Below, piece by piece: positions 27,149 through 62,116 of a stretch of DNA of 64,000 nt. A program made the translations under genes and the position numbers. The notes under the pieces are model-generated. The model was not told the origin of the DNA. It saw only the letters and a list, made by a program, of their open reading frames with translations, and did no database searches. Position 1 is the stretch's first letter. Each line of letters opens with the position of its first letter. This DNA is from a virus (lineage: Duplodnaviria; Caudoviricetes): the IMG/VR virus record IMGVR_UViG_3300030098_005649, one strand, 5' to 3'.

Positions 27149-27221
27149 GGGGCTGTAGCTCAGTTGGGAGAGCGCTTCACTTGCACTGAAGAGGTCGCAG
27201 GTTCGATTCCTGTCAGCTCCA
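27149..27221 (+). tRNA. trnA: tRNA-Ala(UGC)
   Basis: GGGGCTG/CAGCTCC acceptor with G3:U70, anticodon arm CTTCA-CTTGCAC-TGAAG, GGTTCGATTCC; CCA not encoded. Confidence 0.97.
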
Positions 27222-27226
27222 CATAT

Positions 27227-27297
27227 GTCGTGGTGACCGAAGAGATAGGTGGCGGACTGCAAATCCGTTTATGTGAGTGCGAATCTCACCCACGACT
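27227..27297 (+). tRNA. trnC: tRNA-Cys(GCA)
   Basis: GTCGTGG/CCACGAC acceptor, U73, GCGGA-CTGCAAA-TCCGT; T-loop TGCGAAT non-canonical. Confidence 0.88.
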
Positions 27298-27309
27298 CAA
27301 GGAAAAGTT

Positions 27310-54555: not shown

Positions 54556-54656
54556 GAAAGAAGAGTTTTGGGGTGGATACAAACAATTCACTTTGAAAGA
54601 TGGTACTAAGTTTTTAGCTCGTGACGAACACGATGCAGAACTATACAGGAGTAAAG

Positions 54657-55283
54657 TTGAAACCAGTAATTGATTGTCATAAAAATCACAATCCATTAAT
54701 AAAAAAGAAACTACGGGAGGTGTCAGTTGAAGAGGGATTGGCTATCGCAACGGAATTATTTCAGATACATAACGAAAGAAAAGACGGTATTGGGTTGGCA
54801 GCTAATCAAGTGGGAATTGATGCACAAGTGGCCATTGTCAATGTTCGTGAACCTTTGGTACTCATCAATCCGAAGATTGTATCAAAGGAAACTCCGATTA
54901 CTTATTATGAAGGTTGTTTATCTTATCCTGGCAAAGGAATATCCACACAAAGGTATAGGGACATAGTAGTTTCTACTGCACAAGAAGAGAGTCAATGGTA
55001 CTTTAGTGGTGCTGAAGAAAACTCAGAAGGTAAGAGTGGTTGGGACAAGGGTAATATGCAACAAGACCAAGAGAATAGAATATTGGAATCTGTTTGTGTA
55101 CAACACGAAATAGACCACTTGAATGGTATAACAATTCACGATAGAAGAATTGACAACACTATTAGAATTGAGAAAAAACCAGGTCGTAATGAAAAGGTAA
55201 CAATTCAAAAAGGAAATGAAACTCAAATAATGAAATATAAAAAAATACAAAAGTTTTTGGATGATGGTTGGACTATGGTATGA
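54657..55283 (+). CDS. def: peptide deformylase
   Basis: GIGLAANQVG, EGCLS, QHEIDHLNG; TTG start after aggag. Confidence 0.95.
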   Translation: MKPVIDCHKNHNPLIKKKLREVSVEEGLAIATELFQIHNERKDGIGLAANQVGIDAQVAIVNVREPLVLINPKIVSKETPITYYEGCLSYPGKGISTQRYRDIVVSTAQEESQWYFSGAEENSEGKSGWDKGNMQQDQENRILESVCVQHEIDHLNGITIHDRRIDNTIRIEKKPGRNEKVTIQKGNETQIMKYKKIQKFLDDGWTMV

Positions 55284-57633: not shown

Positions 57634-58839
57634 ATGAAAGAAAATCTTACATTTGACGATATAAATATCGTACCAAAATATTCAGAGTTGAAATCGCGAC
57701 AAGATGTAGACCTAAATACAAACTTTACAAAGAAAACAACTCTACATAGAACACCAATAGTTGCAGCACCAATGGATACTATTTGTGAATATAAAATGGC
57801 AGACCAATTATTAGACCAAGGTAGTGTTGGTGTTTTACATAGATTTCGTAGTATTGAAAAACAAGCATTGGATATGAAGAGACTTTGGAATCGATGGGAT
57901 AGTTGGTACAATATAGGTGATCCTGATGAAGATAGAACAGACCATCATAGAATCTTTGATGAATGGTATAAAGGTGTATATCATTGGAACTCACCACCCA
58001 CCAAATCCGATTACGAGGATTTACACGAATTACTTTGGTTTGCAGATGAGGCTCAAAGAGATGAAGACTTTTGGTCTACGAGACCTTTATGTGCAGCAGT
58101 TGGTGTAACTGGTGACTATATGGAGAGAGCTCAAGAATTAGTAAACAATGGTTGTAATGTACTACTTATAGATGTGGCCCACGGTCATCATCAATTAGTC
58201 AAAGAAGCCATTAGGAGAATAAAAAATGAAACAAATGTGGAAGTGGTCGCGGGAAGTATCGCCACTAAAAGAGCCGCGGTTGATCTTATTGAGTGGGGAG
58301 CGGACGCTCTTAGAGTTGGTATCGGAAATGGATCTCTCTGCGAGACGAGAATCAGGACTGGTGTCGGAGTACCTCAAGTTAGTGCTCTTATTGATGTTTG
58401 TTCCGTTGCTGACAATCATAGTATTCCTGTCATCGCTGATGGTGGTATTCGGTATGTGGGTGATGTGGCTAAGTCATTGGGTCTTGGAGCCTCTTCGGTT
58501 ATGGTGGGTTCGTTATTCTCAGGAACGAAAGAAACACCAGGTGAAATTATAAAACAAGGAGAATGGCCAAATGAAAGACTTTACAAGAAATATAGAGGAA
58601 GTGCCTCACTTGATAGTAAGTTGGACAGAGGAGAATCTAATAATGTTGAAGGAAACTCTAAAATCATTGAATACAAAGGTAAGGTCATCCGTATCATATC
58701 TGATATTCGTGATGGTCTTCGCTCAGCTTTTTCATATGTTGGCGCGAGTGATGTATTGGATTTTCAATCGAAATGTGAATTCGTCAGAGTCACATCAAAC
58801 GGAACAATCGAAGCAAAACCACACTTATTATCGAGATGA
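57634..58839 (+). CDS. IMPDH/GMP reductase family enzyme without CBS domains (likely GMP reductase)
   Basis: [23 protein letters not shown] catalytic Cys, IADGGI, KYRGSAS; no Arg-Tyr flap dyad. Confidence 0.9.
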
Positions 58840-59216
58840 AAGAGATACTGATAAAATCACTTTCATCTAACAAATTAGTTTGGTCTATACTATTTCAATG
58901 TCTTGGTGCGATATGTGCATTCTTTCAATTACAGGCACATTATGTTTGGCCTAAATATAAATTTTTATCAAGTCAGATATTTGTAATTGGTACAAGTCTG
59001 ATTATAGCACCATTGTTTTGGTATGCTACAAAATGGTCGTTTGAACATTTTGGATTTTTTTGGAATATGAGATTGATAGGTTTTGGTATAGGTACTTTGA
59101 TATTTGGTATTATGACTTGGACATTGATTGGTGAAATACCTACACTAAAAACAATAGTAAGTTTATTATTAGCAGTAGCTATTATTTTGATTCAAATAAC
59201 AAATGTAGTGGAGTAA
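58836..59216 (+). CDS. four-TM membrane protein
   Basis: Hydrophobic helices; ATGA overlap. Confidence 0.65.
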   Translation: MKEILIKSLSSNKLVWSILFQCLGAICAFFQLQAHYVWPKYKFLSSQIFVIGTSLIIAPLFWYATKWSFEHFGFFWNMRLIGFGIGTLIFGIMTWTLIGEIPTLKTIVSLLLAVAIILIQITNVVE

Positions 59217-59217
59217 A

Positions 59218-59730
59218 ATGAGTTATAAAGATTACATAAAAGAAGTAAAAGACTTCCCTATTGAGGGAGTAAATTTCAAAGACATATCACCATTGTTGGC
59301 AGACGAAGACACATTTAGGTCATCACTTGTTGATATGGGTAAACAAGTTAGGTTACCTAATTATTGGATGGGTATTGATTCTCGTGGATATTTGTTTGCT
59401 TCAGGTTTAGCAACTTACTTTGGTGGTGGTGTGGTATGTGCAAGAAAAGAAGGAAAGACACCAGGTGACTTTGTAAAGAAAACATACGATTTAGAATATG
59501 GAAGTGCCACAATAGAAATACAACCTTGGAGTGGCCCAATAGGTATGAATGAAGTTGTAATTGTTGATGATGTATTGGCAACTGGTGGAACACTAAAGGC
59601 AGTAAATGAGTTGGCAGAAACTGCTGGATATAATGTGGTTGGTAATTTAGTTTTAGTTGATTTACAATTTGTACCACGAGTAGAAAATTTTGATTTATCA
59701 GTTAGGAGTGTTGTAAAATATAAGGGGTAA
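59218..59730 (+). CDS. apt: adenine phosphoribosyltransferase
   Basis: DFPIEGVNFKDISPLL, GIDSRG, ARKEGK, YDLEYG, VIVDDVLATGGT. Confidence 0.95.
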   Translation: MSYKDYIKEVKDFPIEGVNFKDISPLLADEDTFRSSLVDMGKQVRLPNYWMGIDSRGYLFASGLATYFGGGVVCARKEGKTPGDFVKKTYDLEYGSATIEIQPWSGPIGMNEVVIVDDVLATGGTLKAVNELAETAGYNVVGNLVLVDLQFVPRVENFDLSVRSVVKYKG

Positions 59731-59732
59731 TA

Positions 59733-59936
59733 ATGGCAAACATTAGTAAAGGTCGTGATGCAAAACACGGATTTGAAGAACACAATATATTACAAAAAGA
59801 AAAAATGGACAAAAAAAGATATAAAGAGGCTGGTAAAGGAGACAAGTGGAGAGGTGGTTGGAATCAAACATATGCCGACAATTGGGATAAAATTTTTGGT
59901 AAAAAGAAAACTAAAGAGGAAAATGAAAATGAGTAA
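59733..59936 (+). CDS. small basic hypothetical protein
   Basis: GKGDKWR..YADNWDKIF. Confidence 0.6.
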   Translation: MANISKGRDAKHGFEEHNILQKEKMDKKRYKEAGKGDKWRGGWNQTYADNWDKIFGKKKTKEENENE

Positions 59937-60115
59937 TTTAGAAAGTTGGGGTGCATTTTTAGCACTTATGTTTTTAGTTTGGTCTACTGATATAGTAGAT
60001 TGGTTAGCAGATAAAATAGAAGAGAGGTTCAAGAAATGATAGAAGTACCATTTTATATATTGTTTTGTCTTGTATTCTATAATCTAACAAAGGAATTAGA
60101 GAGAGATATTTTCAA

Positions 60116-60709
60116 ATGAACATACTATTAGTTTCTGCATTAGAGATGGAGACAGACAATAAATTAGATAGTTATTTACCACATAATCTGATACATACAG
60201 GAGTTGGTAAAATAAATGCAACATACCATCTAACAAGAAGATTGTTGGTGGACAGAGCAATAAATTATGAAGCCAGAATAAATATTGTTATAAATTATGG
60301 AACTGCTGGTTCGAGAAAATATGTAAAAGGTAGTCTTGTAGATTGTACCAAATTTATACAACGAGATATGAATGTAACTCCACTTGGATTTGAATTGGGT
60401 CAAACTCCATTTGAAGAAGAACCACATATTATTGAATGTTACCACAATGAGGATTTCAATCCAATAGGTCAAAATACAACTTGTGGTAGTGGTGATAATT
60501 TTTCTATAGATGAAAGTGATTGGGACAAATGGGATGTTGTTGATATGGAGGCATATTCTTTGGCAAAGGTATGTCGTAATTTTGAAGTACCATTTATCTC
60601 ATTCAAATATATTACTGATGGAGCAGATGATGAGGCGGATTCTGATTGGGAAACAAATGTAAAGAATGGTGTGGAGATATTCAAAGAAGAAATCTTAGGA
60701 GAGTTATAA
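60116..60709 (+). CDS. MTA/SAH nucleosidase-like (PNP_UDP_1 family)
   Basis: TGVGKINA, NYGTAGS, SGDNF, VDMEAYS, FKYITDGAD. Confidence 0.88.
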   Translation: MNILLVSALEMETDNKLDSYLPHNLIHTGVGKINATYHLTRRLLVDRAINYEARINIVINYGTAGSRKYVKGSLVDCTKFIQRDMNVTPLGFELGQTPFEEEPHIIECYHNEDFNPIGQNTTCGSGDNFSIDESDWDKWDVVDMEAYSLAKVCRNFEVPFISFKYITDGADDEADSDWETNVKNGVEIFKEEILGEL

Positions 60710-61138: not shown

Positions 61139-61541
61139 GGGGGTGCTTGGTATCGACTGGTATTGTTTGATATAAAGTGCAACAGAGATTGAGTATGTCT
61201 CGTTACAAAAGACTCACAATCCAAATTGGCGAATTATCGCTAGAAGGGTTGGACATTGATTGGCATTTGGCTGAGTATGATTACTCAGTTGAGTTACCAA
61301 TCGGTAATGACCAACCAACTTACGCATACGCTGCATAAGTTACTGAGTTGTCTAACACTCGGTCATAAAATAAGTTAGACACCAACTCGTGTGATAGAGT
61401 ATAAATTTCATCAGTTAGACCATTCTGAGTAAAATGGGATATGGTGGTTTGTTGATTTCTACCGATTTGAAATCTTACTAAGTTGTGAATGACTTTGTAT
61501 TGAAAATAAACAGGACGCGGGTTCGACTCCCGCCACCTCCA
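61139..61541 (+). ncRNA. ssrA: tmRNA (transfer-messenger RNA)
   Basis: GGGGGTG/CACCTCC-A acceptor with G3:U70; GGTATCGAC 5' motif; GCGGG-TTCGACT-CCCGC T-arm; pk1 at ~61186-61216; tag frame 61228-61338 ending YAYAA*. Confidence 0.96.
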
Positions 61542-61603
61542 CAAAAATTCGATTTTTAGTTTTTTAGATGATATTTATAACTAATAACGAGAGGAACGAA
61601 ACT

Positions 61604-62116
61604 ATGAGATTGAGACATAAATTTGGTTTTATGTTTTCATTCACTTTAGTAGTGAATCTTATCTTGACTAAATATTTTTTGGTCGAGATAACTGATAATT
61701 ACAAAATGACTATTGAGAAGTTGGTTGTTCATAACAGACAACTCAATGAAAAAATTGAAGAGATAGAAAGCATAGGTTTACAGGTAACTGTAACTATGTA
61801 TGAACCAGTTCCGTATCAAACTGATTCTACACCGAACATTCTCGCGGATGGTACGCGCATAAGGACTCAAAAAGCTTCAGAGTATCGGTTTATAGCGGTT
61901 AGTAGAAATCTTTTGAAACGGTGGGGTGGACCTCTCGATTATGGTGACTTTGTTATATTGAGAAATACTCAAAGCCATAAAGACGGATTGTATCAAGTAA
62001 GAGATACAATGAATCCAAGATGGGTAAATCGTATAGACATTTTGGAGACACCTGGCACGCCACCATACCGATTAGTAGGAGAAATACTCATTGCAGATAT
62101 GGAAAAGAATACATAA
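61604..62116 (+). CDS. membrane-anchored 3D-domain (MltA-like lytic transglycosylase) protein
   Basis: TM, coiled coil, VTVTMY..TD..ADG..IAVS..VRDT..RIDIL. Confidence 0.8.
   Translation: MRLRHKFGFMFSFTLVVNLILTKYFLVEITDNYKMTIEKLVVHNRQLNEKIEEIESIGLQVTVTMYEPVPYQTDSTPNILADGTRIRTQKASEYRFIAVSRNLLKRWGGPLDYGDFVILRNTQSHKDGLYQVRDTMNPRWVNRIDILETPGTPPYRLVGEILIADMEKNT

Follow-up and report, generated by a model that had tools for sequence, protein, structure and literature searches.

The tags added by transfer-messenger RNAs (tmRNAs) are as a rule regarded as short degrons that can stand in for one another, and the tmRNA gene found in the IMG/VR virus record IMGVR_UViG_3300030098_005649 (Duplodnaviria; Caudoviricetes) raises the question of whether a phage can encode a tag several times longer, and what such a tag would be for. 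The window, i.e. the whole analysed stretch of 64,000 nucleotides (nt), is AT-rich (G+C content of ~33%) and carries nearly all of its genes on the plus strand. ARAGORN identified in it a one-piece tmRNA of 404 nt (positions 61139–61542, plus strand). The initial annotation, made from the sequence without database searches, proposed that the codon GGC at 61228, located 11 nt downstream of the pseudoknot pk1, opens a tag frame of 36 codons. Alignment to the Rfam database, the kind of check suggested there, revealed a genuine tmRNA (RF00023, 84.9 bits versus the gathering score of 47, full-length match to model positions 1–374). Sequence comparison of the relatives described below makes it highly probable that the 36-codon frame is the real tag frame. 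The tmRNA belongs to a family which, as far as we can tell, is undescribed, is widespread in large marine phages and has tags of 34–42 codons (36 here).

A family of phage tmRNAs

Searches of 50,697 deposited phage records with blastn revealed no match to the tmRNA. The relatives were drawn from IMG/VR with two degenerate patterns, corresponding to the tag end and to the IDWHLAE stretch, and then by a profile search of viral contigs, which identified 59 full-length members (52 unique), nearly all of them marine; the tallies given hereafter are over 52 (in some cases 51) or 47 unique relatives, depending on the analysis. Among 5.8 billion predicted proteins, gene callers had reported open reading frames (ORFs) of the same frame 246 times, all of them in ocean metagenomes (represented by Tara, ENA, JGI and unnamed NCBI records). 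P0130, a 538-residue protein from a database cluster, was rejected as an unrelated low-complexity sequence. No paper containing the tag motif was found in the literature, and the tag is the longest among the conserved tmRNA tags known to us.

The closest record to the window is a 109-kb IMG/VR viral contig (G001), which carries the same tmRNA with a sole difference, CAT to CAC, synonymous in the 36-codon frame. Because this nearest record is viral and a large terminase is encoded in two related viral records (125 and 165 kb), the tmRNA is assigned on sequence grounds to a large phage, with a genome of roughly 180–210 kb as extrapolated from completeness estimates. The contexts inspected around the family tmRNAs are phage-like runs of small co-directional genes.

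The probable resume codon and the 36-codon tag frame

The point at which translation is expected to resume was analysed with respect to pk1 (61185–61216), for which the initial annotation had given the right coordinates and both stems: GAGAT/GTCTC (stem 1, 61185–89/61197–61201) and TGAGT/ACTCA (stem 2, 61190–94/61212–16). Both stems covary in the family, stem 1 being found also as GAGTT/GACTC, AGGTT/GACCT and GGGTT/GACCC, and stem 2 as TGAAC/GTTCA, TAGGT/ACCTA, TGGGT/ACCCA and TGAGC/GCTCA, with 5/5 pairs of stem 2 formed in 47/47 relatives. The pseudoknot is followed by a single-stranded spacer of 11 nt (61217–61227) with A at position −4, and 11–13 nt separate the end of pk1 from the conserved Gly/Asp codon in all 47 relatives. 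The 11-nt spacing matches that of E. coli. The putative resume codon, GGC (Gly, 61228–61230), is represented by GGC in 42, by GGT in 2 and by Asp codons in 3 of the 47 sequences; both Gly and Asp are known resume residues, and the resume codon of the E. coli tmRNA corresponds to nucleotides 90–92 (PMC1168896). On the strength of this comparison, translation is predicted to resume at GGC 61228, give or take about one codon.

From GGC 61228 to TAA at 61336–61338 there are 36 sense codons, as initially annotated, and the frame turned out to be open in all 52 unique relatives, with at least 38 codons up to the stop. Counted from the conserved Gly codon the tags comprise 34–42 residues, and all differences in length correspond to whole codons. 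Residues L5, L8, I10, D11, W12, H13, L14 and A15 are invariant, and G1, S4, G7, E16 and Y17 are nearly so, while the codons that specify them vary: four synonymous codons are used for Leu5, three each for Ile10, Leu14 and Ala15, and two each for Leu8 and His13. The variability of the first, second and third codon position is 0.51, 0.37 and 0.85, respectively. The pooled ratio of nonsynonymous to synonymous changes (pN/pS) is 0.39 in this frame versus 1.46 and 1.27 in the other frames, a result reached by 0/300 column shuffles. For codons 5–18, all of which lie upstream of the start predicted by ARAGORN, it drops to 0.12 versus 2.9 and 1.1 in the other frames (0/500 column shuffles).

The initial annotation envisaged an insertion of ~25 acidic and aromatic residues ahead of a canonical-like end. 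The inserted character of this segment and the nature of the end are upheld, and the family alignment divides the segment into a conserved acidic/aromatic module of ~20 residues and a variable linker, followed by QP(T/S)YAYAA. The N-terminal module (codons 1–19, 61228–61284) has the core SLxGLxIDWHLA, usually followed by EYD, and its conservation and pN/pS suggest purifying selection at the level of the peptide. The linker (codons 20–28, 61285–61311; 21–48 nt in the relatives) occurs in more than 20 peptide versions of 7–16 residues, all of which differ by whole codons. The C-terminal end QPTYAYAA (61312–61335) is nearly invariant, with variants such as PSYAYAA, TYAAA and SYAYA, and resembles the canonical tag end. 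Lys and Arg are both absent from the tag encoded in the window. The tag would therefore have three parts, i.e. the selected module, the linker and the degron-like end.

An RNA hairpin built into the coding sequence

The same nucleotides appear to be under selection also as RNA, a feature missing from the initial annotation. The segment 61217–61342 folds at −46.5 kcal/mol (z = −6.4), a value reached by 0/200 shuffles. The predicted fold has three parts: a six-pair hairpin UGGCGA/UCGCUA enclosing the resume codon (61227–61242; 49–52/52 paired), a long irregular hairpin inside the ORF (61247–61316), closed by GGUUGG (61247–52)/CCAACC (61311–16), with closing pairs kept in 42–52/52 relatives, and helix 5 (61317–61341), AACUUA/UAAGUU, with the stop codon in its 3' strand. 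The fold is a property of the family (median z = −4.9, all 47 unique members below −2), and shuffling of the linker alone weakens it, with z < −2 in 43/47 cases. Compensatory changes were found both in the resume hairpin, with a CG-to-UA double change in two relatives, and in helix 5 (strands 61317–22/61336–41), where one pair exhibits AU/GC and another AU/UA/UG. Among the three hairpins proposed initially for the inserted segment, GCGA/TCGC is borne out as a part of the resume hairpin (49–52/52, one double compensatory change), CTGAGTA/TACTCAG forms the tip of the predicted long hairpin in the window and is kept in part of the family only (30–48/51), and TTACC/GGTAA had to be abandoned, as it is absent from the minimum-energy fold and not conserved.

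It appears that selection has favored linker nucleotides able to pair with the conserved 5' coding arm. We infer that the encoded peptide constrains the 5' arm, and that the 3' arm, i.e. the loosely constrained linker, evolves so as to keep pairing with it; the extra codons would then fold into a long hairpin in which the linker RNA pairs with the coding sequence of the module. This hairpin probably compacts the message, which has three times the usual length, within the space from pk1 to helix 5. As codons 1–4 also form a hairpin, the RNA as well as the peptide may account for their conservation.

Expression and possible function of the tag

Metatranscriptome contigs from four studies span the tmRNA body and exhibit variants known in the family, e.g. 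a synonymous T-to-C change at 61266 and an A-to-T change at 61253 that turns Asp into Val, a replacement found also in relatives. Those from two runs span the tmRNA body without the upstream flank. The contigs are no more than suggestive of expression, since they can show neither ends nor strand.

Judging from its canonical parts, the tmRNA would be cut from a transcript and provided with a CCA end, charged with alanine by the host AlaRS via the G3:U70 pair, and delivered to stalled ribosomes by SmpB. The host SmpB is presumed here because no SmpB was found in five related viral records (G001 and four others); smpB, noted initially to be missing from the window, is also absent from G001, which spans the window region by mapping assuming colinearity. 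Resumption at GGC 61228 and translation through UAA 61336, as supported by the comparison, would mean that rescued chains receive Ala and 36 further residues. By analogy with the tags reviewed in PMC3985003, the QP[T/S]YAYAA end should act as a ClpX/ClpA-type C-terminal degron.

As for the N-terminal module, the SspB site of the E. coli tag offers an analogy, according to which the module could possibly be a second recognition site for an adaptor, a protease or a phage factor. Its interpretation as an adaptor- or protease-binding site, which goes back to the initial annotation, is reasonable and compatible with purifying selection, and we regard it as possible with the same reserve, as against other roles of the peptide or a role played mainly by the RNA. 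The rerouting of rescued chains by such a module or by a decoy, also envisaged there, is speculative. A more specific idea, which is rather doubtful, is that the module serves as a phage-specific address label that hands every rescued chain to a dedicated partner, be it a phage factor, a host protease or adaptor, or a degradation-sparing sink. Equally doubtful is its extension, in which the phage tmRNA would outcompete or supplement the host tmRNA in infection and the virus would reprogram the output of ribosome rescue, the nucleotides being doubly coded as the peptide and as the 5' arm of the hairpin.

Neither SspB (0/5) nor Lon (0/5) was found in the related viral records, and the search of the tag peptide against Pfam yielded nothing at E ≤ 10. 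The only match to the PDB was between the tag segment LEGLDIDWH (61246–61269) and the active-site motif DGLDIDWE of GH18 chitinases (1wno and 1w9p), with E = 1.4, and is probably due to chance. A ClpP-family peptidase (Pfam, 116 bits) is encoded in G001 (G001:79453–79947, i.e. L161 1498–2127, minus strand), ~14 kb before the window start by mapping, among methylase and nucleotide-modification genes; it is the only one in the five related records. It scores too low to pass the curated cut-off of either true ClpP or the ClpP-related head-maturation protease, and is ambiguous between the two.

Alternative explanations

ARAGORN places an 11-residue tag starting at the internal GGT (61303), which would make the preceding 75 nt a purely structural insertion. 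The last 11 residues do resemble an ordinary tag, and the region inserted ahead of them, which is strongly structured, is aligned by Rfam as an insertion. However, resumption at this codon, considered as a possibility in the initial annotation, is contradicted by the family, in which the codon specifies Gly in only 25/47 relatives (and V, N, S, T, A, L or Q in the others), and the starts chosen by ARAGORN sit at non-homologous positions in different relatives. The covariation-defined pk1 is located 75 nt upstream of GGT as compared to 11–13 nt upstream of GGC, and the rival pairing of its stem 2 with the distal UACUCA, present in the Rfam alignment, was rejected as it exhibits no covariation. 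As the frame upstream of GGT has a pN/pS of 0.12, varies in length by whole codons and is free of stops in the 52 unique sequences, a short tag is very improbable. Another explanation accepts that all 36 codons are translated and assumes that selection acts on the hairpin, for the sake of compaction, protection against nucleases, or contact with SmpB or the ribosome, the peptide of the module being a passenger. It agrees with the high stability of the ORF RNA in every member, with the selection of the linker for pairing and with the tag peptide having no predicted fold or known motif. Yet pairing alone should constrain both arms and all codon positions alike, whereas the 5' arm is nearly invariant as a peptide with drifting third positions (three to four synonymous codons at L5, I10, L14 and A15), the 3' arm is free in sequence and length, and the low pN/pS is confined to one frame; we therefore find this explanation quite unlikely.

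It could also be argued that long tags are ordinary in the host lineage and that the phage carries a copy of the host gene, as phage tmRNAs are generally thought to have been acquired from hosts (PMC9004378). A scan of cellular genomes for one exact pattern (P-T-Y-A-Y-A-A-stop, one genome per species in 185,579 bacterial and archaeal species) returned five matches, none of them in a tmRNA, and gave no support to a host tmRNA with the same long tag, which the initial annotation had proposed to look for. Moreover, none of the 246 database ORF calls comes from a named organism, every inspected context is phage-like, and neither a short-tag relative nor a cellular relative was found among 87 other viral-contig tmRNAs, all of which makes inheritance of an ordinary host tag unlikely. 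As to further clues to the host, no psbA or psbD was found in the five related viral records, and the nearest isolate, Microcystis phage Mel-JY01, exhibits 40–55% identity in two proteins and has no tmRNA. Finally, the frame might belong to an ordinary small gene that overlaps the tmRNA and has its own start codon. There is an in-frame ATG at 61195 in the window, a GTG-started ORF is listed at 61177, and metagenome gene callers predict such ORFs (47–88 residues) 246 times. However, 19/47 relatives have no in-frame ATG, GTG or TTG between the upstream stop and the Gly codon, which excludes an ordinary gene translated from a start codon of its own, and in one relative (L155) an in-frame TGA is located just two codons 5' of the Gly codon. 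The ATG of the window lies inside pk1 and is not conserved, and the conservation of amino acids begins at the Gly codon and not upstream of it. An independent small gene is thus extremely improbable.

Several observations weigh against a long tag with a functional N-terminal module, which we nonetheless prefer. The addition of the peptide to proteins is deduced from comparison, and the ARAGORN heuristic picks the short tag. The resume point can be placed to within about one codon, and its location inside a six-pair hairpin, which is unusual for a tmRNA, might in principle interfere with resumption. The nucleotide conservation of the module could stem in part from the RNA hairpin: since third-position transitions are often tolerated as G-U pairs, selection on the RNA and selection on the peptide are not fully separable. 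No binding partner for the tag was found in the related phage records, and an AlphaFold2 model of the tag with 38 aligned relatives exhibits no secondary structure (pLDDT 62) and is uninformative. The contigs from RNA libraries, in addition to leaving the RNA ends undefined, do not exclude DNA carry-over.

Overall architecture of the tmRNA

As a whole the RNA exhibits the hallmarks of a tmRNA, including a 7-bp acceptor stem, the G3:U70 pair, a T-arm, the discriminator A, a start-less internal frame ending with YAYAA-UAA, and a stop codon in helix 5. The acceptor stem is formed by GGGGGUG (61139–61145), identified by sequence, ARAGORN and Rfam and covarying in the family, and by CACCUCC, which is followed by the discriminator A (61534–61541). 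G3 (61141) is opposite U 61538, giving the G3:U70 pair that AlaRS recognises in the acceptor stem. The DNA 3' of the discriminator A reads CAAAA (61541–61545) and not CCA; as the CCA end is only partly encoded, it must be completed after transcription. Helix P2 (61157–61183 paired with 61482–61513) was delineated with RNAalifold from 47 unique relatives, with several pairs changed on both sides, e.g. CG/UA, AU/UA/GC and AU/GC. Pseudoknot pk2 (61343–61380; 61343–48/61357–62 and 61350–56/61374–80) is paired in 50–52/52 relatives and exhibits the double changes CG/UA, AU/GC and UA/CG, and the T-arm (61517–61533; GCGGG, loop UUCGACU, CCCGC) covaries as GC/AU/UA/CG. The region of pk3 and pk4 is variable in the family and poorly aligned by Rfam. 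Covariation was thus detected in the acceptor stem, P2, the T-arm, pk1, pk2 and helix 5 (47–52 unique relatives), and because P2, the T-arm, the acceptor stem and pk2 covary across the family, the whole RNA evolves as a working tmRNA.

Genomic surroundings and other tmRNAs

A peptide deformylase (Pfam PF01327, 90 bits) is encoded 6 kb upstream of the tmRNA (54621–55283, plus strand) and also in 5/5 related viral records; together with the tmRNA, it indicates that the lineage carries two translation-related accessory functions. Two phage tRNA genes, tRNA-Ala(TGC) and tRNA-Cys(GCA), separated by 5 nt, are located at 27149–27298 (plus strand). A short distance upstream of the tmRNA there is a nucleotide-salvage cluster (57634–60709, plus strand) that encodes an IMP dehydrogenase (IMPDH)/GMP reductase-like protein (339 bits), a nucleoside phosphorylase-like protein and a phosphoribosyltransferase. 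The first of these genes, the IMPDH-like one, is found close to the tmRNA in 12 family loci, as well as in the 484-kb phage LR756508; its product has viral or Pseudomonadota clusters as Atlas neighbors, which give no clue to the host. A 182-residue protein with a hydrophobic N-terminal segment (61568–62116, plus strand) is encoded in 39 family loci, most often directly 3' of the tmRNA. Its only match is PHROG 21574, of unknown function, with no Pfam family, and no tie to tagging was seen. The scan for promoters and terminators around the tmRNA gene revealed nothing above background.

The 87 other viral-contig loci mentioned above (L003–L089) share with the window a 30-nt 3' end of the tmRNA, corresponding to the T-arm and acceptor sequence. 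In several of them (e.g. L008 and L041) ARAGORN predicts further long tags, of 21–23 residues, and many of the tmRNAs there are two-piece. The uncultured phage LR756508, the best database relative of two window proteins, likewise encodes a tmRNA (72 bits; LR756508.1:92434–92880, i.e. L164 1501–1944, plus strand). The 8-residue tag assigned to it by ARAGORN looks wrong, and in an alternative frame the first stop downstream of the 5' end comes after ...KPAAV; read from a GGC codon, this frame may encode an acidic tag of 36 residues. The pattern scan found no relatives of this candidate.

Comparison with known tmRNAs

With the canonical one-piece tmRNA of E. coli the family shares the tRNA-like domain with G3:U70, P2, pk2, the distance of ~11 nt from pk1 to the resume codon, a helix 5 that contains the stop codon, and a tag end of the type aromatic-Ala-(Tyr)-Ala-Ala. 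It differs in the length of the tag (34–42 versus ~10 residues), in the resume codon being placed in a hairpin, in ~75 extra coding nt that form the long hairpin, and in being phage-borne, with no phage smpB found in the five related records. According to a survey from 2005, the mRNA-like domain of tmRNAs comprises 48–126 nt (PMC1168896).

Tags well above ~10 residues are found also in Mollicutes, the tag of Mycoplasma being ~27 residues long. There is, however, no sequence similarity between the two kinds of tag; the Mycoplasma tag ends with AFA and functions in cells without ClpXP, while the phage tag is longer and ends with Ala-Ala. The Mycoplasma tags have been called "unusual" and are degraded by Lon (PMC8403727), and their extra length carries information for protease recognition, according to PMC8403727 and to Gur and Sauer (2008) as cited in PMC3985003. 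A working analogy, and only an analogy, is provided by the bipartite ssrA tag of E. coli and Caulobacter, in which the upstream part binds the adaptor SspB and the C-terminal Ala-Ala binds ClpX (PMC3985003). The phage tag may work like this bipartite tag, with no claim of membership in the class: its module has 20 residues as compared to 7, and SspB is missing from all five related phage records.

Phage tmRNAs as such are known from the mycobacteriophage Bxz1 group and Bacillus phage G (PMC4131195) and from huge phages (PMC7162821), and the OM43 phage Melnitz has a two-piece tmRNA (PMC9004378). As in these cases, ssrA is complete in the family described here and resides in large phage genomes of the lytic type, mostly with no phage SmpB (PMC4131195, PMC7162821, PMC9004378). 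One-piece tmRNAs, such as the one in the window, are rare among marine phage isolates (PMC9004378). The tags in these papers are ordinary or were not analysed, and no conserved long tag is described there. As far as we can tell, a conserved tag of 34–42 residues that has an additional module under selection and a hairpin in its coding RNA has not been described before.

Implications

In a phage tmRNA family common in ocean metagenomes, purifying selection appears to maintain an extra peptide of 20 residues, the codons of which are embedded in an RNA hairpin. It offers a clean natural example of overlapping constraints on peptide and RNA structure within ~110 nt. In practical terms, the ARAGORN annotation mis-sets the tag in this family, at positions that are not homologous between its members. 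If it is true that the module binds something, the family would provide the first example in which a virus changes the fate of rescued proteins, and the module would represent a new portable targeting or degradation tag.

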